Origin: an uncultured virus (IMG/VR IMGVR_UViG_3300043469_001223)
Taxonomy: Duplodnaviria; Heunggongvirae; Uroviricota; Caudoviricetes
Reading direction: 5' to 3' (one strand)
Length of the DNA: 20,000 nt
IMG/VR virus record: IMGVR_UViG_3300043469_001223
The notes under the pieces were generated by a model, which worked only from the letters and a program-made list of their open reading frames with translations, was not told the origin of the DNA and searched no databases. The position numbers and the translations under genes were made by a program. Below are positions 4,962-20,000 of the stretch, piece after piece (within the stretch, counting starts at the first letter, position 1; the number at the start of each line of letters is the position of its first letter).

Positions 4962-5239
4962 TAGTCTTTCCTTTGATCAACTTGATCAGCACGAGCAATC
5001 CGATCATAATCGGGCTGTAGTCCCAATGCATGACTTACTTTAACATCAATACGTTGTAATTGGTTGGTCATAGTATCTACTCGACTGTCTAGACCTTTAA
5101 TAATACCACCCATTCCGTTGACGCTAGATGTTACACCAGCTAAAATAAACTTCAATGTTAGGAAAACAAAGTAGCCAGCCGCTATTGCACCAGCTATTGG
5201 AAACCCTAACTCTGCTACTAATTTAAAGAAATCGCCCAT
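4961..5239 (-). CDS. Small single-TM coiled-coil protein (YvrJ-like N-terminus)
   Basis: VAELGFPIAGAIAAGYFVF TM segment; GGAG/AGGA Shine-Dalgarno upstream. Confidence 0.75.
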   Translation of the reverse strand: MGDFFKLVAELGFPIAGAIAAGYFVFLTLKFILAGVTSSVNGMGGIIKGLDSRVDTMTNQLQRIDVKVSHALGLQPDYDRIARADQVDQRKD

Positions 5240-7386: not shown

Positions 7387-8390
7387 AATGTGCCTGGTTA
7401 GAAAATATGATGAGCATCGAAACAGACGGATGGACGCGACCGTGCTGTGCAGAACCGTCTAAGGATGCAAGGATAGCACATATTAATAACGGAATACAGG
7501 CAGCATGGAATAATTCTAAATTACTAGAATTAAGAGAGGAGTTAAAGAACGGTTATTCTAAAAAGACTCGACCATTTTGTAACAGATGCGAAATTTTAGA
7601 ATCTGCAGATCAACCTAGTATGCGTACCAGTACACCGTTTGCCACACAAGATAGGACATTAAAAACAATTCAATTTAAAATGAGTAACAAGTGCCAACTA
7701 ACTTGTGCTCATTGTGGTCCTGAGTTATCTACAGGATGGAAAAAGTTTTTAAAGATAACTCCGATAGCTTCCGATAGTTTTGAATTAACTGACGAATTTT
7801 TAAAAGAGTTAGGAGAATTACTACCGCAGATAACTTGTCTAAAATTTACCGGCGGCGAGCCTTTTCTCGACCCTAACCATTGGAAGATATTAGAATACTT
7901 ACAGCAGTTTGATAGAAGTCATTGTACATTAGAATATATAACAAACGGCATTAGTCCCTTTAGAGATGAACTATGGAAGGGTTGGCAATCTGTTAAATGC
8001 AGTGTCAGTGCAGATGGTTATGGAGAAACATACGAATGGTTTCGCAGAGGATCTTCCTGGGAAGAATTAATAAGTGGTGTCCGTGATCTAAAAGAAGTCA
8101 GCGATGTTAGTATAAATTTTGCAATGACTCCTTATACTATACAAGATTATCATACTGCTAAAAACTATTGGGGACGTATAGATACACATCTTATCGTGCA
8201 TCCTAAGCATGCCAGTCTTTTATATTTTCCTATGAACGTGTTAGAAAAACTTGATGATTATCAAACAATACCCTATGTAGACGGTGCAAGAGGATCTAAT
8301 TTATATTTTTATAAAAGTTGGGCAGAAGATTGGGATATGAAATGGAATACAAAAGGCTGGTCTAACAGGCTATTTTGGTGGATGACTTGA
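7383..8390 (+). CDS. Radical SAM enzyme with N-terminal SPASM/twitch-like domain
   Basis: CQLTCAHC CxxxCxxC motif, FTGGEPFL, ITNG; N-terminal C..RPCC..CNRC; start placed at ATGA overlap 7383. Confidence 0.85.
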   Translation: MKCAWLENMMSIETDGWTRPCCAEPSKDARIAHINNGIQAAWNNSKLLELREELKNGYSKKTRPFCNRCEILESADQPSMRTSTPFATQDRTLKTIQFKMSNKCQLTCAHCGPELSTGWKKFLKITPIASDSFELTDEFLKELGELLPQITCLKFTGGEPFLDPNHWKILEYLQQFDRSHCTLEYITNGISPFRDELWKGWQSVKCSVSADGYGETYEWFRRGSSWEELISGVRDLKEVSDVSINFAMTPYTIQDYHTAKNYWGRIDTHLIVHPKHASLLYFPMNVLEKLDDYQTIPYVDGARGSNLYFYKSWAEDWDMKWNTKGWSNRLFWWMT

Positions 8391-10981: not shown

Positions 10982-11057
10982 CTCGCATTCGGTTAGCGGC
11001 TATGCCACCTGGTTTGGGGCCAGGATTTCGAAGGTTCGAGTCCTTCATGCGAGACCA
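10982..11057 (+). tRNA. tRNA-Pro(UGG)
   Basis: Cloverleaf, loop TTTGGGG, CCA. Confidence 0.9.
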
Positions 11058-11066
11058 AGTTTAAAT

Positions 11067-11158
11067 GGAAAGTAATGCAGCGGGGTTGGTCCTGCGACCA
11101 GCCTTGAAAACTGGGTTCTCAGAAATGGGATGGGGTTCGACTCCTCTGCTTTCCGCCA
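11067..11158 (+). tRNA. tRNA-Ser(UGA)
   Basis: Loop CTTGAAA, long variable arm, GCCA. Confidence 0.88.
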
Positions 11159-11164
11159 AGACAA

Positions 11165-11193
11165 TTGACAAATTCTACATAAGATTGTATAAT
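11165..11193 (+). promoter_or_regulatory. Sigma70 promoter
   Basis: TTGACA-17nt-TATAAT. Confidence 0.8.
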
Positions 11194-11201
11194 TACATTA
11201 T

Positions 11202-11317
11202 GCGACCGTAAGTGGAATATGGCAGACCTCCCGTTATGCTCATAGCATAGGTCAGGGGAAGGGGCACATAACATAGTTACCGTGCTCTTGTAGGTTCGAG
11301 ACCTACCGGTCGTACCA
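11202..11317 (+). tRNA. Oversized (116 nt) tRNA-like gene, Leu-type body, CAU loop on extended arm
   Basis: Acceptor GCGACCG/CGGTCGT-ACCA, T-arm GTAGG-TTCGAGA-CCTAC, TATG-CTCATAG-CATA hairpin. Confidence 0.55.
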
Positions 11318-11321
11318 GTTT

Positions 11322-11384
11322 TAGGATCAGTTCAGCAAACTTAAAAACTTTTTTATTATTCAAAAAAACCAAAGTTGATCCTGT
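11322..11384 (+). ncRNA. TAGG/CAGCAA family RNA, copy A
   Basis: TAGGATCA..CAGCAA..TGATCCTG; T6/A6 hairpin with 7-nt loop ATTATTC. Confidence 0.65.
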
Positions 11385-11392
11385 TTTATTAT

Positions 11393-11467
11393 GTATCCCT
11401 AGTGTCAGCGGCAGCACGCCGGTCTCCAAAACCGTTAGGCTTGGTTCAAATCCAAGGGGGTATGCCA
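11393..11467 (+). tRNA. tRNA-Trp(CCA)
   Basis: Loop CTCCAAA, GCCA. Confidence 0.88.
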
Positions 11468-11471
11468 GTTT

Positions 11472-11529
11472 TAGGATGCGTCCAGCAAATCAAAAAATTC
11501 AACTTTTAATTGAAAAATAAGCATCCTGT
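11472..11529 (+). ncRNA. TAGG/CAGCAA family RNA, copy B (Lys UUU anticodon stem-loop)
   Basis: TAGGATGC..CAGCAA..TTCAA-CTTTTAA-TTGAA..GCATCCTG. Confidence 0.7.
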
Positions 11530-11536
11530 TTTTTGT

Positions 11537-11610
11537 TCCCGGATTGTGTAATGGTAGCACAACAGACTTTGACTCTGTTAGCCTAGGTTCGATCCCTAGT
11601 CCGGGTGCCA
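11537..11610 (+). tRNA. tRNA-Gln(UUG)
   Basis: Loop CTTTGAC, GCCA. Confidence 0.9.
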
Positions 11611-11633
11611 ATATTTTGTTAGACTTCTTAGGT

Positions 11634-11704
11634 GTGGCTATAGTGTAATGGTAGCACTACATGTTGTGACCTTGTCAGTACGGGTTCAAATCCCGTTAGT
11701 CACC
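11634..11704 (+). tRNA. tRNA-His(GUG), no encoded G-1 or CCA
   Basis: Acceptor GTGGCTA/TAGTCAC, loop TTGTGAC, C73 followed by CCT. Confidence 0.82.
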
Positions 11705-11719
11705 CCTAAGCAGTTTATT

Positions 11720-11751
11720 CCTCTTGTAGTTAAATGGTATAACAATCGCTT
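11720..11751 (+). pseudogene. Orphan 5' half of a tRNA
   Basis: CCTCTTG-TA-GTTA-AATGGTA-TAAC-A-ATCGC-TT, with no T-arm or 3' acceptor strand following. Confidence 0.65.
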
Positions 11752-11764
11752 TCCTGGCGAGCGT

Positions 11765-11772
11765 TATAAATA
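11765..11772 (+). promoter_or_regulatory. T4-like late promoter for the endonuclease
   Basis: TATAAATA then AGGAG SD and ATG 11789. Confidence 0.65.
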
Positions 11773-11788
11773 CTTGTAGGAGAACACT

Positions 11789-12190
11789 ATGAGTATATCA
11801 AACGAAAAAGGTGAAATAGGAGAAGCAGCATTTGTGCTCGTTTCTGCCAAAAGAGGATATTGGACTGGCAAAATGCCACAAGGTTGTCCTTATGATTATG
11901 TGTTAGATAGACACGACGGTAAACTTTTACGAATTCAAGTTAAGTTTAGATCGTTAGAAAGTAACGGAATAGTTACAATTAAACTATCTCAAAACACATT
12001 TACAAATAGAGTTTCTTACAATGAAAGTAACATCGATTATATTGCAGTCTATGTAAATGAATTAGATAAAGTATATCTCGTTCCTATTGCAGAAATATGC
12101 GATGTAAAAGAAGTTAAACTGCGATGTGTAGAATCAACAAAAAGAAAAGATAAAAACTCTCGTATAATAACAGAATACGCAGAGTGGTAA
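11789..12190 (+). CDS. PD-(D/E)XK putative homing endonuclease (PDDEXK_5 / I-Ssp6803I-like)
   Basis: KGEIGE..PYDYVLD..RIQVK..Y..IDYIAVY..VYLVP motif order. Confidence 0.8.
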   Translation: MSISNEKGEIGEAAFVLVSAKRGYWTGKMPQGCPYDYVLDRHDGKLLRIQVKFRSLESNGIVTIKLSQNTFTNRVSYNESNIDYIAVYVNELDKVYLVPIAEICDVKEVKLRCVESTKRKDKNSRIITEYAEW

Positions 12191-12195
12191 TTTAT

Positions 12196-12270
12196 GGCCA
12201 CGTAACTCAGAGGCAGAGTACCGTCTTGATAAGGCGGGAGTCGACATTTCGAAATTGTCCGTGGCTACCA
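12196..12270 (+). tRNA. tRNA-Ile(GAU)
   Basis: Loop TTGATAA, ACCA; T53-T61 in place of G53-C61. Confidence 0.85.
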
Positions 12271-12277
12271 ATTTTAT

Positions 12278-12356
12278 CTGTGTGTAATGTCAGTCAGGTC
12301 AGACGGCCGGCCTTGGAAGTCGGAGGTCGCAGGTTCGAATCCTGCCACACAGACCA
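12278..12356 (+). tRNA. tRNA-Pro(UGG), A37 variant
   Basis: Loop CTTGGAA, ACCA. Confidence 0.85.
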
Positions 12357-12362
12357 GTTTAT

Positions 12363-12439
12363 GCATCGGTGACAGAGCGGCCAATGTAGCGGATTGCAAA
12401 TCCGTCCAGTCGTGGGTTCGAGTCCCACCCGATGTTCCA
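12363..12439 (+). tRNA. tRNA-Cys(GCA)
   Basis: Loop TTGCAAA, TCCA. Confidence 0.9.
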
Positions 12440-12446
12440 GTTTATT

Positions 12447-12522
12447 GCCCTTGAAGCCTTTAATGGATGAGGTCCTGTCTTGTAAGCAGGGGAAGTCGGT
12501 TCGATTCCGGACTGGGGCACCA
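12447..12522 (+). tRNA. tRNA-Thr(UGU)
   Basis: Loop CTTGTAA, ACCA; irregular T/acceptor stems. Confidence 0.8.
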
Positions 12523-12529
12523 ATACAAT

Positions 12530-12605
12530 GCAACTTTAGCTGATGTGGTCATAGCGGTGGTCTGAAGAGCCATTGAAGTAGGTTCGATCCCTACAGGTTG
12601 CACCA
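12530..12605 (+). tRNA. tRNA-Phe(GAA), G37 variant
   Basis: Loop CTGAAGA, ACCA. Confidence 0.85.
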
Positions 12606-12612
12606 ATTTTAT

Positions 12613-12688
12613 CCTTGAGTTAAGCGGGGCCGTATACACCCTTGCCAATAGTTAGTAATGTGTACTGCGACATACACCTCGAGGGCCA
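12613..12688 (+). ncRNA. tRNA-sized RNA with acceptor stem and CCA but non-canonical arms
   Basis: CCTTGAG/CTCGAGG-GCCA, 76 nt, GTGTA-CTGCGACA-TACAC in T-arm position. Confidence 0.55.
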
Positions 12689-12695
12689 AGTTTAT

Positions 12696-12769
12696 GCGTG
12701 GTTCGTTTAATGGTAAGATCACTGGCTTCCACCCAGTAGTTAAGGGTTCGATTCCCTTACCCCGCACCA
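12696..12769 (+). tRNA. tRNA-Gly(UCC), A73 variant
   Basis: Loop CTTCCAC, ACCA. Confidence 0.85.
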
Positions 12770-12772
12770 GTT

Positions 12773-12836
12773 TAGGATACTTACAGCAAACCAAAATATT
12801 TCACTTTTTGGCTGTGAAAAGCAAACAGTATCCTGT
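12773..12836 (+). ncRNA. TAGG/CAGCAA family RNA, copy C (UUG-centred loop)
   Basis: TAGGATACT..CAGCAA..TTTCAC-TTTTTGGCT-GTGAAA..AGTATCCTG. Confidence 0.68.
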
Positions 12837-12880
12837 TTAATAGTGTTGTTAAAATACAACAAAAATAGTTGCAAAGACTA

Positions 12881-12952
12881 TTGACAAGGAGGTAAAACCT
12901 TGCTATAATTAACACATACACTAAGCAATTAGATGTAAATGTTCTTTAAAAA
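12881..12952 (+). promoter_or_regulatory. Sigma70 promoter with downstream hairpin and boxA-like site
   Basis: TTGACA-17-TATAAT (12881-12909); CTAA-GCAA-TTAG; TGTTCTTTAAAAA (12940-12952). Confidence 0.78.
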
Positions 12953-12968
12953 TTTACAGTATAAGAAG

Positions 12969-13081
12969 TTCTTATACACATACACACAAATGCTTAGGCC
13001 AAGCAGATAGAGGTGGTATCTAGCTGGACGAGAAGTCCAGTTGGCAGGTTCGAGTCCTGTGAGTGTGTAGTTGTATAAGAA
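12969..13081 (+). ncRNA. tRNA-like RNA with long variable arm inside extended stem, no CCA
   Basis: TTCTTATACA/TGTATAAGAA; arms GCTT/AAGC, AGATA/TATCT, AGCTGGAC/GTCCAGTT, GCAGG-TTCGAGT-CCTGT. Confidence 0.6.
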
Positions 13082-13085
13082 TTTT

Positions 13086-13162
13086 ACTTCGTTCGTCTAC
13101 GTGGTTTAGGACGCTAGCCTTTCAAGTTGGAAAAACGGGTTCGAGTCCCGTACGGAGTACCA
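13086..13162 (+). tRNA. tRNA-Glu(UUC)
   Basis: Loop CTTTCAA, ACCA. Confidence 0.88.
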
Positions 13163-13165
13163 AGT

Positions 13166-13264
13166 TAACAACACTCAACGCACTGTAGGATGGCATTCAG
13201 TCTCCCTGCCAGCGAGGGATGAGAGTGGCAGGCATAACTGGTTAATGTTATGCTTGTGTTATTA
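13166..13264 (+). ncRNA. Unidentified structured RNA
   Basis: TAACAACAC/GTGTTATTA closing stem; TCCCT/AGGGA, CTGCCA/TGGCAG, GGCATAAC/GTTATGCT. Confidence 0.45.
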
Positions 13265-13269
13265 GTTTT

Positions 13270-13345
13270 GCCACAGTAGTCCTCTGGGTAGGGCACCGGA
13301 TTGTCTATCCGATTTAGGCGGGTTCGATTCCCGTCTGTGGCGCCA
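13270..13345 (+). tRNA. tRNA-Asp(GUC), U37
   Basis: Loop TTGTCTA, GCCA. Confidence 0.85.
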
Positions 13346-13351
13346 AGTTAT

Positions 13352-13438
13352 GGAGATGTAGGAAAATTGGTAACCCCAGTGGACTGTAAATCCGCCGCCC
13401 GAAAGGCACTACTGGTTCGACTCCAGTCGTCTCCACCA
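13352..13438 (+). tRNA. tRNA-Tyr(GUA)
   Basis: Loop CTGTAAA, variable arm, ACCA. Confidence 0.9.
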
Positions 13439-13445
13439 AGTTAAT

Positions 13446-13520
13446 GGTCCTGTCATATAGTGGTTATTATACCGGCCTGTCTAGTCGGATATCGGGGTTC
13501 GATTCCCCGCAGGATCGCCA
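13446..13520 (+). tRNA. tRNA-Asp(GUC), U37
   Basis: Loop CTGTCTA, GCCA. Confidence 0.88.
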
Positions 13521-13528
13521 AAATTTAT

Positions 13529-13607
13529 TCCGTGAAATCCAAGCATGGTGCAAGGACTTGACTGTTAATCAATGATTAGGTGAGTTCGATCCTCACACAC
13601 GGAGCCA
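13529..13607 (+). tRNA. tRNA-Asn(GUU)
   Basis: Loop CTGTTAA, GCCA. Confidence 0.85.
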
Positions 13608-13616
13608 ATACAATTT

Positions 13617-13691
13617 GGGGGCAGCAGAGGGCTGCGGCGTTGCCTTGCAAGCATCGTGACTAGAGGGGTTCGATACCCCCGGCCTCCACCA
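13617..13691 (+). tRNA. tRNA-Ala(UGC), reduced D-arm
   Basis: Loop CTTGCAA, G3-U70, ACCA. Confidence 0.75.
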
Positions 13692-13699
13692 AACATTTT

Positions 13700-13775
13700 G
13701 CCACAATAGCTCCAATGGTAGAGCAGCGGATTGAAAATTCGTGTGTTACTGGTTCGAGTCCAGTTTGTGGCACCA
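13700..13775 (+). tRNA. tRNA-Phe(GAA)
   Basis: Loop TTGAAAA, ACCA. Confidence 0.9.
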
Positions 13776-13838
13776 AACAAGGGCCGTGAGATAATATCAA
13801 GACGATCGGCGCTGGAGCACCTACCCAGCACAAATTTT

Positions 13839-13899
13839 TAGGATAGCAACAGCAAAATCAAAAATTTCACTGTTAATGAAACCAAAAATGCTATCCTGT
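13839..13899 (+). ncRNA. TAGG/CAGCAA family RNA, copy D (Asn GUU anticodon stem-loop)
   Basis: TAGGATAGCA..CAGCAA..TTTCA-CTGTTAA-TGAAA..TGCTATCCTG. Confidence 0.7.
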
Positions 13900-13906
13900 T
13901 TTATTT

Positions 13907-13981
13907 GCCCGCATAGTATAATGGATAATACACTGGTCTACGAAACCGGGGATTGTGGTTCGATTCCATATGTGGGCACCA
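13907..13981 (+). tRNA. tRNA-Arg(ACG)
   Basis: Loop CTACGAA, ACCA. Confidence 0.9.
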
Positions 13982-13988
13982 AGTTAAT

Positions 13989-14066
13989 GGGCGATGACTG
14001 TTGTAAAGGATAACAGGCGGTAGCAACCCTGCCGTGACAGTGGTTCGATTCCACTATCGTCCACCA
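13989..14066 (+). tRNA. tRNA with non-canonical anticodon loop (GCAACCC)
   Basis: Good acceptor GGGCGAT/ATCGTCC-ACCA and T-arm; no U33. Confidence 0.6.
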
Positions 14067-14069
14067 AGT

Positions 14070-14279
14070 TTTGTAAGTGTCAGCAAGTAGAGTCACGCTG
14101 TCTAGGTATGTTCGAACTACCAAAACAGTAGAAGGTAGCGGGTTCGATCCCCGTCCGATCGGAAGATCGGAATACAGTTGGAGTATCGTCTGGACAAAGC
14201 CCAAGTGACGTATCTTGACCCTGCCGGCTTTATTACAAGGGAAAATGGTTGCGATATGAGGGACGCAACAGCTTACAAA
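14070..14279 (+). ncRNA. ~210-nt structured RNA with two T-loop hairpins
   Basis: TTTGTAAG/CTTACAAA ends, GTCAC/GTGAC, GGTA-TGTTCGAAC-TACC, GCGGG-TTCGATC-CCCGT. Confidence 0.6.
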
Positions 14280-14289
14280 TTCAATGCGG

Positions 14290-14318
14290 TTGACAACTAC
14301 CCTAAAAGGTTGTATAAT
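14290..14318 (+). promoter_or_regulatory. Sigma70 promoter
   Basis: TTGACA-17nt-TATAAT. Confidence 0.82.
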
Positions 14319-14347
14319 AGAAACTTAAACACAAAAGAGGTAATGAC

Positions 14348-14371
14348 ATGAAACGTTCAGGTAAACGATAG
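14348..14371 (+). CDS. Putative leader mini-ORF MKRSGKR
   Basis: GAGGT SD 6 nt upstream; ATG AAA CGT TCA GGT AAA CGA TAG; stop abuts switchable hairpin. Confidence 0.55.
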   Translation: MKRSGKR

Positions 14372-14443
14372 TGTCAATCTTAGATCCCGTATATGGTCTA
14401 GGGTTGGCACATTAAAGACAAATTTAATATGCAACAACCCTAG
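14371..14443 (+). promoter_or_regulatory. Mutually exclusive hairpins overlapping tRNA-Lys 5' end
   Basis: 14371-14386 pairs with 14395-14410, or 14398-14416 pairs with 14423-14443. Confidence 0.65.
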
Positions 14444-14514
14444 CTGGCGTTTAACGGTAGCGTACTCGGCTCTTAACCGATGAGGTGTCAGTTCGAATCT
14501 GACGCTAGGGACCA
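14438..14514 (+). tRNA. tRNA-Lys(CUU)
   Basis: CCCTAGC/GCTAGGG-ACCA, loop CTCTTAA. Confidence 0.85.
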
Positions 14515-14519
14515 TATAT

Positions 14520-14597
14520 GGGATTGTAGTGTCAACGGTTTAGCACAGCGGACTTTTAATCCGCCAGGTTCCGGTTCGAATCCGGACAGTCCTACCA
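14520..14597 (+). tRNA. tRNA-Lys(UUU)
   Basis: Loop CTTTTAA, ACCA. Confidence 0.9.
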
Positions 14598-14690
14598 TAT
14601 CAAAGCTCACTAGAACTAGTGTGGGCATCCGCTTCCTCACGTAGTGCAGGAGGCGTAACGGTTCGATTCCGCTAGTGTGTTTTGATATGG
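14595..14690 (+). ncRNA. Stem-enclosed RNA with T-arm
   Basis: CCATATCAAAGCTCACTAG/CTAGTGTGTTTTGATATGG; CGG-TTCGATT-CCG. Confidence 0.55.
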
Positions 14691-14763
14691 TAACGTAGCA
14701 TAATGGTTGTGCAACACCTTCATACGGTGCCCGGTGTGAGTTCGAATCTCACCGTTACTACCA
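14689..14763 (+). tRNA. tRNA-Met(CAU)
   Basis: Loop TTCATAC, ACCA. Confidence 0.85.
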
Positions 14764-14768
14764 AACAT

Positions 14769-14844
14769 GTCCCATTCATCTAGAGGCCTAGGATAGTACC
14801 CTTTCACGGTATTTACAGCGGTTCGAATCCGCTATGGGACGCCA
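14769..14844 (+). tRNA. tRNA-Glu(UUC)
   Basis: Loop CTTTCAC, GCCA. Confidence 0.9.
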
Positions 14845-14846
14845 AG

Positions 14847-14993
14847 TTTTGAGATAGACGTTGAAGTAGAGTCCCTTGTGCGCTAGGTCCCTATTCTTGA
14901 GACTGACACACCAGTAGCAACACAAGGTAGTTTAAACTCCTTCATACGAGACAAGCCAGTGAGTCCTTGAGAAAGATAGCTGGTCTCTCAAAA
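14847..14993 (+). ncRNA. Unidentified structured RNA
   Basis: TTTTGAGA/TCTCAAAA ends; TGAAG..GAGT/ACTC..CTTCA; CCTTGTG/CACAAGG; CCAG/CTGG. Confidence 0.5.
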
Positions 14994-15001
14994 ACCTATT
15001 T

Positions 15002-15079
15002 GCCCCTGTAGCCCAATTGGTAGCAGGCAACAGTCTTAAACATTGTCAAGTACCGGTTCGAATCCGGTCAGGGGTACCA
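15002..15079 (+). tRNA. tRNA with UAA (Leu) anticodon but short variable loop
   Basis: ACAGT-CTTAAAC-ATTGT, ACCA. Confidence 0.78.
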
Positions 15080-15085
15080 AACAAT

Positions 15086-15175
15086 AGTGAGTTGCCAGAG
15101 AGGCCTATTGGCGCATCTTGGAAAGGTGATGGTTCCGTAAGGGGCACGAGAGTTCGAATCTCTCACTCACTGCCA
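15086..15175 (+). tRNA. tRNA-Ser(GGA)
   Basis: Loop TTGGAAA, long variable arm, GCCA. Confidence 0.9.
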
Positions 15176-15176
15176 C

Positions 15177-15251
15177 ACCGCTTTCGTATAATGGATAATA
15201 CGGCAGGCTTCTACCCTGCGAATATGGGTTCGATTCCTGTAGGCGGTACCA
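15177..15251 (+). tRNA. tRNA-Arg(UCU)
   Basis: Loop CTTCTAC, ACCA. Confidence 0.9.
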
Positions 15252-15256
15252 CATAT

Positions 15257-15331
15257 CGGTCTTTGGTGAAATGGATATCATCTCGGTCTTCGAAACCGAG
15301 GGTGGGAGTTCGATCCTCTCAAGACCGGCCA
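15257..15331 (+). tRNA. tRNA-Arg(UCG)
   Basis: Loop CTTCGAA, GCCA. Confidence 0.9.
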
Positions 15332-15334
15332 TAT

Positions 15335-15409
15335 CTCGCTATAGTACAATGGATAGTACGGGGTCCTCCTAAGACTTAAATGTAGGTTCGATTCCTACTG
15401 GCGGGACCA
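15335..15409 (+). tRNA. tRNA-Arg(CCU)
   Basis: Loop CTCCTAA, ACCA. Confidence 0.9.
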
Positions 15410-15449
15410 AGTTTTATATACAGTTAATGATAAATATTTGTTTACTATT

Positions 15450-16940
15450 ATGAATGTTATTATTATACAAACAATTAGCGATTATCGGGGCGCCGCTCCT
15501 AGATCAATTGGGGGTCACCAATTAGCTTGGTATTTAAGACTCTTTGGTTATACAGTACAGGTTATAAATTATTCTGAACCAATTTTTACATTGGATAAAG
15601 TAAATGCACTGTTTGAAAAATTTGTAACAGATGAAACCAAAGTTATAGGCCTTGGAGGAATTTTATTAGAAGCTAACGATGTATTCTTTTCTATATTCAG
15701 TTCAGCAATTAAACAACTTAAAACAAAACATCCAAATTTAAAAATAATAGCCGGTGGCCCATCTGTTGGTATAATTAAAGGAAAATTAAAAAAAACACTT
15801 GATTATTATTTTACAGGTCATGCTGAAAATACAATGTTACAATTTTGCAATTGGATTTTTAAAAAAGGTCCACAGCCATTTGTCGAAATAGGTGCAGACG
15901 GTTACAAAATTGTAAAAGAATCTTCGTATCAAAGTAATGAAGGATTTTCAATTGAGCAGTGTAATTTTAGGTGGCATGACAGTGATGCTATACAGCCAAA
16001 TGAAGCATTGCCGTTAGAAACAACCAGGGGATGCATTTTTAAGTGTAAATTCTGTCAATATCCGTTAATTGGAAAAAATAAAAAAGATTTCCTTAAACCG
16101 ATGGAAAATATAAGAGATGAGTTACTTGACAATTACGAAAGATTTGGAACAACGAATTATTATATTTTAGACGATACATTTAATGCAGACACCGAAAGAT
16201 TGGAAGAATTTGCCAAAATGGTATCATCCTTACCTTTTAAAATTAAATATGCAACTTATTTAAGATTAGATTTAATTGAGGCTCATCGTCATACTGAAGA
16301 TATGTTATTGGAAAGCGGTCTTTATGGAGCTTTTTTTGGAATAGAAAGTTTTAATAAAGATGCATCTGCTTTGGTAGGAAAGGCATTTAGCGGAAAAAAA
16401 GCCAAAGACTATTTGCCTCATTTGTTACAGGACAGATGGCAGGGAAAAGTAAAAGAACATCTTAGTTTTATCGCAGGCATTCCTCCAGAAACATTAGATG
16501 ATTTAAAAGAAACTCATAACTGGTGTGTCGATAATAAAATAACATCCTGGAAAATAATTCCCTTATTACTTAATAAACCTGATACTTCGGTATTCACTAG
16601 TGAGTTTGAACGTAATGCAGAAAAATATGGATTTGAAATAATACAGGTATTGCCCGAGTCTTACGCTATTGGTAAGCGTCTCTGGAGACAAACTTGGTGG
16701 AAGCATTCATCAGGTCTTACATTTTTAGATGTAGTAAAATGGACAAATTTGCTAACTGAAAGCGCGGCCCCGCATGTTAAAAGAGGCGGCTGGAACGCAG
16801 TTGAAGTCCTACAATTTGGATACACTGTTGAAGAAATAGATAGACTGCGATGGGGCGAATACAACTTAGACAATGAATGGCAAAATAGAGTTCACTTGTT
16901 TGTACAAACGTATTATAATGATCTCATGTCTCTAAAATAA
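15450..16940 (+). CDS. B12-binding-domain-type radical SAM protein
   Basis: KIIAGGP..GHAE N-domain, ETTRGCIFKCKFC, YILDDTFN, FFGIES; ATG at 15450 after ATAAATA. Confidence 0.88.
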   Translation: MNVIIIQTISDYRGAAPRSIGGHQLAWYLRLFGYTVQVINYSEPIFTLDKVNALFEKFVTDETKVIGLGGILLEANDVFFSIFSSAIKQLKTKHPNLKIIAGGPSVGIIKGKLKKTLDYYFTGHAENTMLQFCNWIFKKGPQPFVEIGADGYKIVKESSYQSNEGFSIEQCNFRWHDSDAIQPNEALPLETTRGCIFKCKFCQYPLIGKNKKDFLKPMENIRDELLDNYERFGTTNYYILDDTFNADTERLEEFAKMVSSLPFKIKYATYLRLDLIEAHRHTEDMLLESGLYGAFFGIESFNKDASALVGKAFSGKKAKDYLPHLLQDRWQGKVKEHLSFIAGIPPETLDDLKETHNWCVDNKITSWKIIPLLLNKPDTSVFTSEFERNAEKYGFEIIQVLPESYAIGKRLWRQTWWKHSSGLTFLDVVKWTNLLTESAAPHVKRGGWNAVEVLQFGYTVEEIDRLRWGEYNLDNEWQNRVHLFVQTYYNDLMSLK

Positions 16941-16976
16941 ACATTTAGATTTGATTCCTAGTGATAACACAAAAAT

Positions 16977-17050
16977 GCTCTTGTAGTACAATGGTAGTAC
17001 ACTGTCTTGGTACGACAGCAATCAAAGTTCGATTCTTTGCTTGAGCACCA
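16977..17050 (+). tRNA. tRNA-Thr(GGU)
   Basis: Loop TTGGTAC, ACCA. Confidence 0.85.
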
Positions 17051-17070
17051 AAAATATTTTTAAATACCTG

Positions 17071-17139
17071 TTGACACACACTGAGAAAGACAGTATAATT
17101 TATACATACGCTGCTAATAACAGCACTGTTCTTTAAAAA
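17071..17139 (+). promoter_or_regulatory. Sigma70 promoter with downstream hairpin and boxA-like site
   Basis: TTGACA-17-TATAAT (17071-17099); GCTG/CAGC hairpin; TGTTCTTTAAAAA (17127-17139). Confidence 0.78.
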
Positions 17140-17156
17140 TGTAAAGTTAGTATTTT

Positions 17157-17240
17157 GCGAGAGTGGAGAAATGGTATACTCAGCAGACTTAAAATCTGCC
17201 GCCGAAAGGCATACGGGTTCGAGTCCCGTCTCTCGCACCA
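17157..17240 (+). tRNA. tRNA-Leu(UAA)
   Basis: Loop CTTAAAA, variable arm, ACCA. Confidence 0.92.
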
Positions 17241-17360
17241 TTAATTGAATCCTTTGCAAGCACAGAGGTTTGATCATACGTTATGTAACCTATTCAATAA
17301 ACCGTCAACTCGAGTAAAGCGTGTTGAGGATAGGCATATAGTGTAGAGGATTCAACTAAT
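17241..17360 (+). ncRNA. Unidentified structured RNA
   Basis: TTGAATCCTTTGCA/TGTAGAGGATTCAA closing stem; CCTATTC/GGATAGG inside. Confidence 0.5.
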
Positions 17361-17368
17361 GGAAATTT

Positions 17369-17458
17369 GGTGCGGTCCTATAATGGTATTAGAGCGGATT
17401 GCTAATCCGTCGCTCGGCGTAATCCGGGTTCTGAGTTCGAGTCTCAGTCGCACCGCCA
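17369..17458 (+). tRNA. tRNA-Ser(GCU)
   Basis: Loop TTGCTAA, long variable arm, GCCA. Confidence 0.9.
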
Positions 17459-17467
17459 AACATACAT

Positions 17468-17559
17468 GCCAGCGAGACTTGGTAGTCAGAGAGGCCTTAT
17501 AGACCTTTTAGCGCCAGATTAGCGTTCTTGAGAGGGTTCGATCCCCTCCGCTGGTACCA
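17468..17559 (+). tRNA. Atypical tRNA with UAU anticodon, mini D-arm and long variable arm
   Basis: GCCAGCG/CGCTGGT-ACCA, GACT-TGGT-AGTC, loop CTTATAG, AGCGC/GCGTT arm. Confidence 0.7.
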
Positions 17560-17568
17560 ATGATTGAT

Positions 17569-17645
17569 GCGCCTATAGCTCAGTTGGTCAGAGCAGAGGA
17601 CTCATAATCCTTTGGTCCTAGGTTCAAGTCCTAGTGGGCGCACCA
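17569..17645 (+). tRNA. tRNA-CAU (probably Ile2)
   Basis: Loop CTCATAA, ileX-like body, ACCA. Confidence 0.85.
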
Positions 17646-17662
17646 AGTTATTAAAATAGAGG

Positions 17663-17691
17663 TTGACAGGATTATAAATATCCTGTATAAT
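17663..17691 (+). promoter_or_regulatory. Sigma70 promoter with nested TATAAATA late promoter
   Basis: TTGACA-GGAT-TATAAATA-TCCTG-TATAAT. Confidence 0.8.
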
Positions 17692-17699
17692 AAAAATTT

Positions 17700-17783
17700 G
17701 CCCCGGTGGTGTAATGGTAGCCACGCTGGTCTTAGAAGCCAGTGCCGAGAGGCGTGTCGGTTCGAGTCCGACCTGGGGCACCA
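17700..17783 (+). tRNA. tRNA-Leu(UAG)
   Basis: Loop CTTAGAA, variable arm, ACCA. Confidence 0.92.
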
Positions 17784-17866
17784 TATTAAAACACATACAG
17801 ATCCGCCCTCTAGTAGGGGAGATAGCGACTAGCGTTGAAGGACTGTTTAAATGTGTTTTAATATGG
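17781..17866 (+). ncRNA. Stem-enclosed RNA
   Basis: Perfect 16-bp CCATATTAAAACACAT/ATGTGTTTTAATATGG. Confidence 0.55.
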
Positions 17867-17939
17867 GCTGATAGTGATAATGGGAGCACAGTGGCTTTGC
17901 AAGCCTCGGGTGGGAGTTCGATCCTCCCTCGGTCCACCA
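17865..17939 (+). tRNA. tRNA-Ala(UGC)
   Basis: Loop TTTGCAA, G3-U70, ACCA. Confidence 0.88.
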
Positions 17940-17960
17940 TAAAATTTTTTAAGGAATAAA

Positions 17961-18134
17961 ATGAGAGCAAGAACAGGTTCAACTTTTAGGTTGAGTAAAA
18001 GAGCAAAGACTATGATAGCATTGATGAGTTTTAAGAACGATCAAGACCGTCATGGATTCAAAAATGCAATGATAGATGCTCAAGTGGCTGCGAACATTGT
18101 TCCGCGATCCTCTAAAGAGCGAGACGCAAAGTAA
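17961..18134 (+). CDS. Hypothetical 57-aa basic protein
   Basis: AAGGA SD; MRARTGSTFRLSKRAKTMIALMSFKNDQDRHGFKNAMIDAQVAANIVPRSSKERDAK. Confidence 0.7.
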   Translation: MRARTGSTFRLSKRAKTMIALMSFKNDQDRHGFKNAMIDAQVAANIVPRSSKERDAK

Positions 18135-18141
18135 AGTATAT

Positions 18142-18217
18142 TCCCTGGTAGCTCAGCGGTAGTAGCAGCAGACTGTTAATCTGTTGGTCGCAAGTTCGAT
18201 CCTTGCCCGGGGAGCCA
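18142..18217 (+). tRNA. tRNA-Asn(GUU)
   Basis: Loop CTGTTAA, GCCA. Confidence 0.92.
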
Positions 18218-18244
18218 AATTTTTTAAACCAACGAAAGTAATAG

Positions 18245-18475
18245 ATGATTAAAGTTATTAAAGTTCCCTTTTCTCCACAGAACATCGACACAGACAAATG
18301 TGTCGAAGCCGTGGGCAATAGATTTGATCTAGTTCTGATTGCCAGTGCTCGAGTTCGCGAACTGCGACGTGGACATGCTAAACAAGTTAGCGGAACCAAC
18401 AGTGCCACTATTACTGCCTTGCAAGAAATTGAAGCAGGTAAAATTGGTAGAGAGTATCTTAAAAAGGTTCGGTAA
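18245..18475 (+). CDS. rpoZ: RNA polymerase omega subunit homologue
   Basis: VGNRFDLVLIASARVREL..TALQEIEAGKI matches the omega signature. Confidence 0.88.
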   Translation: MIKVIKVPFSPQNIDTDKCVEAVGNRFDLVLIASARVRELRRGHAKQVSGTNSATITALQEIEAGKIGREYLKKVR

Positions 18476-18741
18476 TGTCAAAAGGTTCAAGAGCTCGTCC
18501 GTTTAGCGTTAGCCAGAATACATTTGCTAACAACTATGACGCTATTTTTGGAAAGAAAGATATGCAAGTAAGAGTACAAGAAAATGCAGATGAGATTGGA
18601 AAATGCGGTTGTGGTCGTAGTCCGACTGGTAAGTGTGTCGGTTGGCATGGTCTAACAGAAGCTGACTTTCAATCAAAGCTAGCATCATATCTAGCAGATG
18701 AACAGTCAAAGAATGTAAGTGATTCCACTCAGGGCGGTTAA
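18475..18741 (+). CDS. Small protein with CDGSH-type Fe-S motif
   Basis: CGCGRSPTGKCVGWH; TAATG overlap with rpoZ. Confidence 0.7.
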   Translation: MSKGSRARPFSVSQNTFANNYDAIFGKKDMQVRVQENADEIGKCGCGRSPTGKCVGWHGLTEADFQSKLASYLADEQSKNVSDSTQGG

Positions 18742-18750
18742 ATATATTGC

Positions 18751-18825
18751 GCCCTGTTAGCACAGTGGCAATGCGCCGCTCTTGTAAAGCGGAGATCGTC
18801 TGTTCGATTCAGACACGGGGCACCA
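18751..18825 (+). tRNA. tRNA-Thr(UGU)
   Basis: Loop CTTGTAA, ACCA. Confidence 0.88.
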
Positions 18826-18831
18826 AGTTTT

Positions 18832-18894
18832 TAGGTTAATTACAGCTATCAAAAATATGGCGACTGCTAGGTCATTAAACTAGTATTAACCTGT
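18832..18894 (+). ncRNA. TAGG/CAGCAA family RNA, copy E (CT-GCT-A loop)
   Basis: TAGGTTAAT..CAGCTA..ATGGC-GACTGCTAG-GTCAT..ATTAACCTG. Confidence 0.65.
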
Positions 18895-18900
18895 TGAAAA

Positions 18901-19102
18901 CCCGTCTTACTATTTCTACGTAACGAAATAGCGTCTCTGTAACGATAGACCAGAGGGTACACTAGGACCTGACCTCACAGTCCCTATTTAAGGGATACTG
19001 GAAACTGCCTAGGGTGAGGATTAACAGCCTTTCCAGAAGAAGAAAATGTTATGGACGTAGCAACAGACCAGTTTAGGGCTCATGTGGTGTGAGTAGCTAG
19101 AC
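18901..19102 (+). ncRNA. Unidentified pseudoknot-rich RNA region
   Basis: Crossing pairings CTAGG/CCTAG, CCTCAC/GTGAGG, CTGGAAA/TTTCCAG plus flanking hairpins. Confidence 0.5.
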
Positions 19103-19211
19103 ACTTTATTGAAACGCATTGTGGAGAGCACTGTGTAGATTGGGAAGGTTTGATTCCGACTCACTACATCACTCGGTATCCTGCGGCCGCAACAGTGTGT
19201 TTCAATAAGGT
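19103..19211 (+). ncRNA. Stem-enclosed RNA with T-loop-like hairpin
   Basis: TTATTGAAACGCATTGT/ACAGTGTGTTTCAATAA; GG-TTTGATT-CC. Confidence 0.55.
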
Positions 19212-19212
19212 A

Positions 19213-19335
19213 ACTTTATTAAAATATATTCTTTGTCTACGTAGCCCAAACCCGGGGGAGCCTTGCAAAGGAAATGTGCCTAGCACACGGTACAACAAGC
19301 ATAAGACACTTGTTGGGAGTATGTTTTAATAAAGT
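19213..19335 (+). ncRNA. Stem-enclosed multi-hairpin RNA
   Basis: ACTTTATTAAAATATATTC/GAGTATGTTTTAATAAAGT; CC-TTGCAAA-GG inside. Confidence 0.55.
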
Positions 19336-19337
19336 AT

Positions 19338-19411
19338 GCGGGGTTCGTATAGTGGTAATACCTGAGCCTTCCAAGCTCATGCTGAGAGTTCGATTCTCTT
19401 ACCCCGCTCCA
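19338..19411 (+). tRNA. tRNA-Gly(UCC)
   Basis: Loop CTTCCAA, TCCA. Confidence 0.9.
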
Positions 19412-19418
19412 TATTTTT

Positions 19419-19494
19419 GCCTGGTTGCGCAGAGAGGTTATGCATCTCCTTTACACGGAGAACGATGTCAGTTCGAGTCTGACACCAGGTACCA
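19419..19494 (+). tRNA. tRNA-Val(UAC)
   Basis: Loop TTTACAC, ACCA. Confidence 0.88.
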
Positions 19495-19501
19495 TTTAAA
19501 T

Positions 19502-19579
19502 CGGAATGTAGCGCAGTCTGGTTAGCGCATCGCGTTTGGGACGCGAGGGTCGTAGGTTCGAATCCTACTATTCCGACCA
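19502..19579 (+). tRNA. tRNA-Pro(UGG)
   Basis: Loop TTTGGGA, ACCA. Confidence 0.92.
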
Positions 19580-19646
19580 TAAATACAAGAAAGAATTCAC
19601 CATGGCACACGGTGTATAATAGGATAAGTAGTGTGGCAAAGAATAT

Positions 19647-19720
19647 AGCGGGCAGGGCGGCCACCACTCCAGTCTCATAAGCTCGGAGCATCCCAGGTTC
19701 AAATCCTGGGCCCGCATCCA
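19647..19720 (+). tRNA. Atypical tRNA-CAU (initiator-like 1-72 mismatch, reduced D-arm)
   Basis: AGCGGGC/GCCCGCA-TCCA, loop CTCATAA, GGTTCAAATCC. Confidence 0.7.
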
Positions 19721-19724
19721 ATTT

Positions 19725-19842
19725 TAGGATACATGCAGCAACGTCTTAAATGACATGTTGGTTCGATTCCAACTCCACGCTTTTGCGTAGATCGCTCAAT
19801 GGTAGAGCAATGGCTTCCAAGCCATCGAAAAAGGTATCCTGT
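19725..19842 (+). ncRNA. TAGG/CAGCAA family RNA, copy F, containing circularly permuted tRNA-Gly-like domain
   Basis: TAGGATAC..CAGCAA..T-arm, looped acceptor stem, D-arm, anticodon arm..GTATCCTG. Confidence 0.72.
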
Positions 19843-19976
19843 TTTATTTTGTTATTCCGGACGCCCTGAAAGGGGAGGTGGTATCGAGCAGTGCGGCAGT
19901 ATAGCTGCCATGGCGTCGTGAGGTTGTAGAACAATAAACTGATAAAATCTACAATATAACAAATGGTTTGACCATT

Positions 19977-20000
19977 TAGGTTCTTTTCAGCAATCTTATT
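19977..20000 (+). ncRNA. TAGG/CAGCAA family RNA, copy G (cut by window end)
   Basis: TAGGTTCTTTT-CAGCAA with the same spacing as other copies. Confidence 0.5.

Follow-up and report, generated by a model that had tools for sequence, protein, structure and literature searches.

A circularly permuted tRNA-like RNA mounted on a CAGCAA handle: a probable Y-RNA-like partner of a phage Ro60-fold protein

What is a cloverleaf with its halves in reversed order doing at the end of a phage tRNA array? The question is raised by a 20,000-nucleotide stretch of an uncultured virus of the Caudoviricetes (IMG/VR record IMGVR_UViG_3300043469_001223), here called the window, which is the minus strand of positions 83397–103396 of a 207,813-bp record with a CheckV completeness of 58%; a record of this length and completeness points to a jumbo phage. 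A tRNA array of 38 genes fills the second half of the window (10982–19720, all on the + strand, called by ARAGORN), of which 33 are confirmed by Rfam, and the record holds 40 tRNAs in total. Five nucleotides past the last array gene begins the element studied here, a non-coding RNA of ~117 nt (19725–19841). Its architecture, its conservation, the family of RNAs that share its terminal handle, and the genomic linkage of that family to a gene for a Ro60-fold protein are established below. From these we consider it probable, if well short of certain, that the element is a Y-RNA-like partner of the phage Ro60-like protein, similar to the bacterial YrlA RNAs, with a different handle and a full cloverleaf.

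The minimum free energy (MFE) fold of 19721–19850 reproduces, arm for arm, the layout proposed in an initial annotation made from the sequence alone, and all the arms it named lie where it placed them (Table 1). The fold has an energy of −36.8 kcal/mol against −25.65 ± 3.42 kcal/mol for shuffled sequences (z = −3.26), with 1 of 200 shuffles as stable. An 8-bp closing stem (U19725–C19732 with G19834–G19841) encloses the tRNA-like arms, of which the acceptor stem pairs at six of its seven positions, with one A·C mismatch, and the fourth, anticodon-like arm is drawn in the MFE fold as 6 bp with a 4-nt loop. Together these form a complete, circularly permuted cloverleaf that opens in the variable region, has its acceptor end closed, and is mounted on a handle carrying the motif CAGCAA. 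Because the order is permuted and the cloverleaf sits inside the stem, the handle departs from the tRNA body at the variable region.

Table 1. Parts of the element and neighbouring features, in window coordinates.
Feature	Position	Strand	Remarks
Handle 5′ strand, U + AGGAUAC	19725..19732	+	pairs with 19834–19841; MFE fold
CAGCAA, single-stranded, 3 nt past handle stem	19736..19741	+	invariant in the family
Small hairpin GUC-UUAAAU-GAC, at the YrlA V-arm position	19743..19754	+	MFE fold
T arm GUUGG-UUCGAUU-CCAAC	19757..19773	+	MFE fold
Acceptor 3′ strand	19774..19780	+	
UUUU loop	19781..19784	+	
Acceptor 5′ strand	19785..19791	+	
U8-C9	19792..19793	+	precedes D arm
D arm GCUC-AAUGGUA-GAGC	19794..19808	+	MFE fold
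Fourth, anticodon-like arm AUGGC-UUCCAA-GCCAU	19810..19825	+	1 nt past D stem; 5 bp, 6-nt loop
A-rich 3′ side of internal loop CGAAAAAG, then handle 3′ strand GUAUCCU + G	19826..19841	+	
Handle 3′ strand, plus G19841; UUUUAUUUU comes next	19834..19840	+	MFE fold
tRNA-Met-like gene, CCA at 3′ end	19647..19720	+	ARAGORN; 5 nt upstream of element
Short handle RNA, A/U-rich hairpin insert, after tRNA-Pro	11323..11382	+	
Short handle RNA after tRNA-Trp	11473..11527	+	
Short handle RNA after tRNA-Gly(UCC)	12774..12834	+	
Short handle RNA before tRNA-Arg	13840..13897	+	
Handle RNA with CAGCUA instead of CAGCAA, after tRNA-Thr	18832..18893	+	
Second tRNA-like handle RNA, start AGGUUCU..CAGCAA	19978..20000, on to ~20093 past window	+	

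In its native order the element receives no tRNA call from ARAGORN and none from Rfam at gathering level. Five re-permuted versions, which differ in the choice of variable-loop junction, were all called as tRNAs (5/5), against 1/1000 dinucleotide shuffles, so the re-permuted sequence scores clearly better than shuffled controls. The call reads 'tRNA-??? (cc)', an abnormal anticodon loop, and the Rfam tRNA model (RF00005) reaches 23.2 bits over the 5′ half of the element alone. The element departs from a canonical tRNA in both defining respects: it does not run as a normal 5′-to-3′ cloverleaf with free acceptor ends, and it has a 6-nt loop in place of a 7-nt anticodon loop with a conserved anticodon. 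A likeness to tRNA-Gly, read from the sequence in the initial annotation, holds in so far as the nearest tRNA of the record is tRNA-Gly(UCC) at 12696, which shares the run UGGCUUCCA in the anticodon arm; the likeness is modest (identities of 33/41 in the 5′ half and 17/24 in the 3′ half, with the next-best tRNAs at 44–47/65), and the relatives of the element do not keep it. That the RNA cannot be charged as it stands is true of the primary transcript, but the YrlA RNA of Mycobacterium smegmatis has a closed 7-bp acceptor that RNase P cuts in vitro and in vivo, and its 5′ half receives CCA (PMC4201824; this and the other articles cited by PMC number are drawn on in excerpt). The element matches that acceptor with seven positions, one of them mismatched.

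Whether the arrangement is maintained was judged from relatives in viral contigs, collected with the pattern AGGATAC-N3-CAGCAA followed by the T loop, which is fixed by the pattern. At least 120 stretches matched; of at least 121 matches, 33 without an exact GTATCCT within 200 nt were removed, the rest reduced to 61 distinct sequences, and removal of one 191-nt read-through of two adjacent elements left 60. All counts of AGGATAC-type relatives, here and below, are among the matches listed. One of the 60 is identical to the window copy, and the identical copy is found on other contigs. All seven acceptor positions pair in 49 of the 60, with a closing loop of mostly 3–6 nt. Once re-permuted, 19/60 are called as tRNAs by ARAGORN, and these are exactly the relatives with a hairpin of at least 5 bp starting one nucleotide past the D stem; they also have U8-C9-like dinucleotides and 7-nt D loops. 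The remaining 41, in which the dinucleotide is mostly UA and the D loop 8 nt, have a fourth arm that is absent or reduced to a 3–5-bp stub, and are YrlA-like.

These homologues keep the arms with covariation. Across the 19 relatives of the full-cloverleaf sub-type, the D stem is paired in 100% of cells, with compensatory changes in three of four pairs, the T stem also in 100% (one of five pairs compensatory), and the acceptor stem in 95.5%, with six of its seven pairs changed on both sides. The small hairpin, poorly aligned by MAFFT, is paired in 73.7% of cells. U8:A14 is present in 15/19, and the Levitt pair 15:48 is G:C or A:U in 9/19, where position 48 was assigned crudely and covariation is not clear. 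The fourth arm is 17 nt long (the canonical 5+7+5) in 13 relatives and 16 nt in six, including the window copy. Whole-element MAFFT alignment put this arm out of register (60% paired, with a gap within the stem), so its pairs were counted on the 13 arms of 17 nt alone; the six arms of 16 nt stand outside that count and were checked for five terminal pairs only. In the 13, all 50 cells are paired and three of five pairs are compensatory, a result to which none of 500 shuffles and no slid register comes close, and U is invariant at the U33-equivalent position of the loop. The loops of the 19 arms are of 10 different kinds, read by ARAGORN as GAA (3), AAA (3), CCA (2), CAA (2), UCA, UAU and CAU, with six unreadable 6-nt loops. 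Given so many loops, neither an anticodon nor a Gly identity is conserved and the arm is retained as a shape; the variable and often non-canonical loop counts against a decoding role. All 29 loci of the sub-type have a tRNA CCA, that is, a tRNA 3′ end, within 14 nt upstream. Judged by this covariation, the element is functional and its tRNA-like insert is under structural selection, not decaying.

The handle is shared with many other RNAs. It consists of a 7-bp stem, 3 nt and CAGCAA, with the 3′ strand followed by GU, and the signature AGGAT-N5-CAGCAA occurs six times in the record on the window's strand and not at all on the other. The inserts fall into size classes of ~35–65 nt (hairpins), ~108–121 nt (tRNA-like), ~163 nt and ~230–280 nt. 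Among 104 distinct elements taken from the DUF2828 loci described below, 80 have a closing stem of 7 bp and 80 have a 3-nt spacer before CAGCAA. Covariation is seen at stem positions 4, 6 and 7; position 6, for instance, is A-U in 43, G-C in 33 and C-G in 26. The base before the stem is U in 90/104, and the three bases after it are G (101), U (85) and U (95). Within the window, the tRNA-like handle RNA that begins at 19978 combines T and D arms with a closed acceptor and has no fourth arm; it, too, has relatives. Most members carry small hairpins, or the ~163-nt or 230–280-nt inserts, without tRNA arms, and the initial proposal that the whole family consists of tRNA mimics therefore falls; the members are united by the handle and by their linkage to a Ro60-like gene. 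A relaxed handle scan of the whole record, overly strict on the spacer, missed known members and served to add two variants. The terminator scan called none of the handles, Rfam at gathering level returned only tRNAs over the whole window, and Rfam E-value searches of the record's two loci and of a Felixounavirus array left the handle RNAs unmatched except for a weak YrlA match. Separately, a stretch of ~210 nt at 14070–14279, with a closing stem UUUGUAAGU/GCUUACAAA followed by 2 nt and CAGCAA and with a T-arm-like GCGGGUUCGAUCCCCGU within, stops just short of a perfect consensus promoter at 14290; it is possibly a divergent member of the family.

The gene to which the handle is linked lies 12 kb before the window, ~30 kb upstream of the element and on the same strand, and encodes a protein of 465 residues (P0001). 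Three handle RNAs of ~163, 237 and 40 nt stand directly upstream of it. To place this arrangement in a wider sample, relatives of P0001 encoded in 355 viral contigs were reduced to 80 loci, 69 of them with at least 600 nt of upstream sequence. In 62/69 loci the kilobase upstream of the P0001 homologue contains the motif AGG.T-N3-8-CAGCAA on the gene's strand, and in some of these no tRNA separates the handle RNA from the gene. The scan covered 67,702 nt and found 113 motifs on the gene's strand and 0 on the other; six of the seven loci lacking the motif have CAGCAA behind a variant stem. The converse also holds: when contigs were collected by the RNA pattern alone (again among the matches listed), all 17 that reach 100 kb or more encode a P0001 relative, 13 of them full length at E ≤ 1.5e-89 and four distant. 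One distant relative, of 570 residues with DUF7788 above threshold, is surrounded by handle RNAs with still other stems. In 13/69 loci a mini-handle stops 1–2 nt before the ribosome-binding site of the DUF2828 gene, a position which suggests that the protein regulates its own translation through the mini-handle. The record's own 40-nt mini-handle (AGGUUAU..CAGCAA..UAACCU, −12191 to −12152 in the frame of the window, in locus L007) also ends 1–2 nt before this site. The gene that immediately precedes the handle RNAs and the DUF2828 gene encodes a 368-residue AAA+ ATPase (PF00004, 4.9e-12; 2567–3670 of the same locus, minus strand); an AAA+ ATPase beside a vWA-containing protein recalls MoxR-vWA pairs, and it is not beside the gene in the Felixounavirus phage ekra.

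P0001 matches the Pfam families DUF7788 (1.5e-51) and DUF2828 (7.2e-30) and PHROG 850 ('RNA-binding protein'), and at least 7,954 proteins matched it. An AlphaFold2 model built with 18 homologues has a mean predicted local distance difference test score of 79.3 and a predicted template modelling score of 0.73. When this model was compared with the PDB using Foldseek (E ≤ 0.001), 13 of 13 matches were Ro60/TROVE structures, from Thermus phage phiLo, Xenopus, human and Deinococcus radiodurans. VIA-align gave Z scores of 14.0–19.2 over 372–396 residues for ten Ro60 entries, the best being 9KOP (19.2), against at most 11.0 for vWA-only chains. The predicted model thus matches Ro60 across its whole length.

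The same pairing is found in isolated phages. A tblastn search with P0001 gave a match in 710 of 50,697 isolate phage records, including Felixounavirus, Vibrio, Campylobacter, Listeria, Staphylococcus and Mycobacterium phages, where frequent annotations are 'RNA-binding protein' and 'Ro-like RNA binding protein'. In phage ekra the DUF2828 gene lies directly before a tRNA array that contains four handle RNAs, at 5226, 5393, 5872 and 5962 of locus L333. All four have the stem AGACCAA/UUGGUCU and, after a 3-nt spacer, CAGCAA; one also has the T arm, closed acceptor and D arm. Ralstonia phage RSP15 has three handle RNAs beside its DUF2828 gene, and Listeria phage LP-064 (Herelleviridae) has three within 350 nt before the DUF2828 start codon. 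Their stems are AGGAAUC, AGAGAGC and AGGAAGC, and in each a 3-nt spacer leads to CAGCAA; in LP-064 an RtcB-like ligase lies 1.3 kb downstream. Across phyla, in the sequences compared, the stem is free to change while CAGCAA, its spacing and the trailing G are constant. An invariant CAGCAA in phages of Proteobacteria and Firmicutes, behind a stem that covaries, indicates sequence-specific recognition.

Two laboratory phages bear on this protein. A PhageMaP preprint (PMC11482910) describes gp130 of Bas63 (Felixounavirus) as Ro60-like, with its gene upstream of tRNA genes, and its authors guess that some annotated Bas63 tRNAs may be Y RNAs. In the P100-like Listeria phage CKA15, the Rsr-like protein CKA15_055 was detected in purified virions (20 peptides, 57% coverage), and three very abundant unannotated transcripts lie no more than 2 kb upstream, for which Y RNAs are one of several explanations (PMC12282133). 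The excerpts of these two reports name no motif or structure. Relatives of both phages carry a DUF2828 protein at the matching place, gp130 and CKA15_055 being putative members of that family. In LP-064, two consensus-like promoters are followed by unannotated stretches of ~300 and ~600 nt between tRNA genes, upstream of the DUF2828 gene (1007–2075 of locus L338); these begin without a clear CAGCAA handle, and they may correspond to the abundant transcripts of the related CKA15 (PMC12282133). The DUF2828 protein of Pectobacterium phage CBB is annotated as 'structural protein'. With that annotation and the CKA15 report (PMC12282133), association of a DUF2828/Rsr-like protein with the virion is reported or annotated for at least two phages, and the protein may be packaged and delivered with the phage DNA.

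Of known RNAs the element most resembles YrlA, a likeness already recognised in the initial annotation: the Rfam YrlA model (RF02553) aligns from end to end, over 114 positions, at 29.3 bits (E = 0.0025). As in YrlA, the 5′ and 3′ ends form a stem that encloses, in order, a (V) element, the T arm, a closed acceptor-like stem and the D arm, and here this order is supported by covariation; the T and D arms are near-invariant; and the RNAs lie near, and on the strand of, a gene for a Ro60-type ring protein, together with sister RNAs that are not tRNA-like. In contrast to YrlA, the handle has CAGCAA, the partner gene is DUF2828/DUF7788 and not Pfam TROVE, and copies lie inside tRNA arrays, directly behind tRNA genes. 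The element also has a separate anticodon-like arm, with the handle at the variable region, whereas in YrlA the long stem replaces the anticodon stem. This arm is indeed present, as the initial annotation noted, but it is not without precedent, since D. radiodurans Yrn1 has a potential anticodon arm of a 5-bp stem and 6-nt loop (PMC4201824), the same dimensions as the fourth arm here. Yrn1 differs in the orientation of its T and D arms relative to the ends, in a doubtful full D arm and in having no V arm in the excerpted description (PMC4201824), and it has no sequence relation to the CAGCAA handle.

The placing of the handle RNAs also has precedents. Y RNAs directly upstream of the Ro60 gene, on the same strand, are a known arrangement (PMC4201824), and Thermus phage phiLo encodes a Ro60 together with Yrl1 and Yrl2, small RNAs just upstream of the gene which Ro60 binds (PMC12135203; PDB 9KOP, 9L5Y). 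Our phages resemble phiLo in encoding a Ro60-fold protein with small RNAs just upstream of its gene; the phiLo RNAs, unlike ours, were selected for a CGAA motif, the excerpted text does not call them tRNA-like, and the phiLo protein is a recognised Ro60 homologue. A few jumbo phages have TROVE proteins with a tRNA-like partner (Iyer et al., PMC7824862). If Y RNAs are taken in a wide sense, as RNAs of a genome that encodes a Ro60-fold protein with sister RNAs beside its gene, the element would belong with them on the evidence of the modelled fold. In the open full-text literature, with subscription journals outside the scope, we found neither a CAGCAA handle nor a permuted full-cloverleaf Y-like RNA described.

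How such an RNA would work can be sketched from YrlA. It is presumably co-transcribed with the tRNA-Met-like gene just upstream and would be freed by host tRNA-processing nucleases. The handle would be the putative binding site of P0001, and the RNA would act as a Y RNA does for Ro60, as a modular adaptor, in which the tRNA-shaped module may link the ring-shaped protein to tRNA-recognising machinery or substitute for tRNA as a decoy. Likely targets would be modification enzymes, RNase P, the CCA-adding enzyme, repair ligases and nucleases, possibly including host anticodon nucleases. With a full seven-position acceptor, opening of the sealed end by RNase P, as in M. smegmatis YrlA, would be possible. 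This sketch draws on YrlA, which is modified by TruB and DusA and is processed in M. smegmatis as described above, and on the Y RNA of D. radiodurans, which tethers Rsr to PNPase (PMC4201824).

Several observations weigh against a Y-RNA-like role for the element. Its YrlA score lies below the gathering threshold of 69 bits, and the motif GNCGAAN0-1G near the 5′ end, the proposed Ro60 contact of YrlA (PMC4201824), is absent: the 5′ side has the sequence AGGAUACAUGCAGCAA, and the one CGAA of the window copy is on the 3′ side, where the relatives do not keep it. YrlA genes would have a TROVE neighbour within ~4 kb on the same strand; here the DUF2828 gene is on the same strand at ~30 kb, although sister handle RNAs lie within 600 nt of it. 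The record contains no match to PF05731 (TROVE), and phmmer found no match to P0001 among PDB sequences, so that the Ro60 likeness was revealed by fold comparison alone and belongs to the predicted fold, not to the sequence. Bas63 gp130, expressed alone from a plasmid or from T7, counters the ppl defence (PMC11482910), so a protein of this kind has at least one activity that is independent of phage handle RNAs. Finally, the handle together with a U-run could be a 3′-end or processing signal.

This last point is the starting place for the best-surviving alternative, in which the handles are cis-acting punctuation of tRNA operons, serving 3′-end formation, weak termination, or nuclease entry or arrest without a dedicated protein, and the insert is a tolerated tRNA relic. 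The 29 sub-type loci all begin 2–8 nt past a tRNA CCA, GUU and often a U-run follow the 3′ strand, and short members close tRNA sub-operons, just before the promoters at 12881 and 14290. We nevertheless regard this as unlikely, given that handle RNAs with their own consensus promoter precede the DUF2828 gene with no tRNA nearby, that CAGCAA is invariant across phages of Proteobacteria and Firmicutes while the stem covaries, that the tRNA-like insert is under structural selection, and that the terminator scan called no handle.

Quite improbable, in our judgement, is that the handle RNA is real and has another partner, a phage or host ligase, nuclease or RNA chaperone, and that the linkage reflects a shared neighbourhood in tRNA arrays. 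DUF2828 genes do adjoin tRNA arrays in isolates, where co-location with any array item would be expected, and gp130 works without phage RNAs (PMC11482910). Such a neighbourhood does not account for handle RNAs directly upstream on the same strand in 62/69 loci, some without an intervening tRNA, for handles that abut the ribosome-binding site in 13/69, or for the gene being present in all 17 large contigs found by the RNA pattern; the arrangement is, moreover, that of Y RNAs and Ro60 (PMC4201824).

A third possibility is a genuine permuted tRNA gene, whose transcript would be joined into a circle or ligated across the handle and would lose the UUUU linker to RNase P and 3′-end processing, leaving a functional, chargeable tRNA. 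Permuted tRNA genes of red and green algae have the 3′ half before the 5′ half, with the acceptor ends joined by a short linker, and yield functional tRNAs through a circular intermediate, the break lying at intron-like positions. The element shares this layout, with all four arms in permuted order, a seven-position acceptor and a re-permuted form that ARAGORN calls, and in 13 of the 19 sub-type relatives the arm has the canonical 17 nt and carries U at the U33 position. It differs from the algal genes in that the break is a conserved handle-like stem common to non-tRNA RNAs, and in its unconserved anticodon loop. Since the same handle carries non-tRNA inserts, it is not a tRNA splicing junction. 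In the window copy and five other relatives the arm measures 16 nt and its loop 6 nt; among close relatives in the same genomic place the loop yields seven different anticodons or cannot be read; and 41/60 relatives have no such arm at all. The record already has two tRNA-Gly(UCC) genes (ARAGORN), and a profile search of it found no RtcB (PF01139), PolyA_pol/CCA-adding enzyme (PF01743) or RNA_ligase (PF09414), in a record that is 58% complete, so that true absence of these three, or of TROVE, is not established. Taken together, we hold a chargeable tRNA to be very unlikely. A functionless chance resemblance, or recent rearrangement of two neighbouring tRNA genes (array tRNAs lie 5–8 nt apart, and a variable-loop-to-variable-loop deletion would yield this order), can practically be dismissed given the identical copy on other contigs, 18 further distinct relatives with compensatory changes in three stems, and 1/1000 shuffles called, the conservation data already contradicting it.

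The surroundings of the element include further features of note. Five perfect sigma-70 promoters (12/12, TTGACA-17-TATAAT) on the + strand, at 11165, 12881, 14290, 17071 and 17663, split the tRNA array into sub-operons. The array gene next to the element is called by ARAGORN as tRNA-Met(CAU), with the anticodon at position 30; the Rfam tRNA model gives no report for it even at E ≤ 10, and in its fold the acceptor and T arm look normal, but the D region is aberrant and the anticodon stem bulged. Megablast of the array against isolate phages returned just three short, tRNA-sized matches. Open reading frames in or beside the array (18245–18475, 11789–12190, 15438–16940 and 7308–8390) comprise a set with an Rpb6/omega-like RNA polymerase protein (PF01192, 1.3e-13), a PD-(D/E)XK endonuclease and two radical SAM proteins, and at 2115–4178 the phage encodes a protein of 687 residues with a CHASE2 sensor and adenylate/guanylate cyclase domains. 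Between tRNA-Thr and tRNA-Gly, the stretch 18890–19056 is covered by freshwater metatranscriptome contigs at summed depths of up to 17,756 (X4) and 2,711 (X2), with several variant letters; it has no Rfam match at E ≤ 1 and may be an abundant, conserved, uncharacterised RNA of this phage group. Over 18700–20000, Logan contigs of four metatranscriptomes, which derive from relatives, give no cover at 19756–19975, a result that is uninformative either way for the element, and in one search of public RNA runs just small shares of the window were matched.

Ro60 and its Y RNAs are best understood in a few bacteria, and the tRNA-like YrlA class is tied to canonical TROVE proteins. The handle RNAs apparently form a widespread and undescribed family, in which a different and much larger protein family is accompanied by RNAs of its own, recognisable by a handle simple enough to search for. 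Within it, the full-cloverleaf sub-type is a complete tRNA body mounted on a protein handle through the variable region, an architecture not described for YrlA in the excerpted text of PMC4201824. The handle supplies concrete Y RNA candidates in phages close to Bas63 and CKA15 (PMC11482910, PMC12282133), which makes the Y RNA question directly testable in laboratory phages. More tentatively, and with more doubt than confidence, it is possible that Listeria Herelleviridae, Felixounavirus and freshwater jumbo phages have one ribonucleoprotein system in common, a Ro60-like DUF2828 ring that takes up interchangeable RNA modules, encoded within or near tRNA arrays, by way of a universal CAGCAA handle. 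Its full-cloverleaf members with their fast-changing anticodon-like loops, would be tRNA decoys or sensors that attract host anticodon nucleases, or other defences aimed at tRNA, to the ring, or that pass damaged tRNAs to repair or decay. If true, this would establish a new class of counter-defence adaptors made of RNA and identify the long-sought RNA partners of the DUF2828 family.

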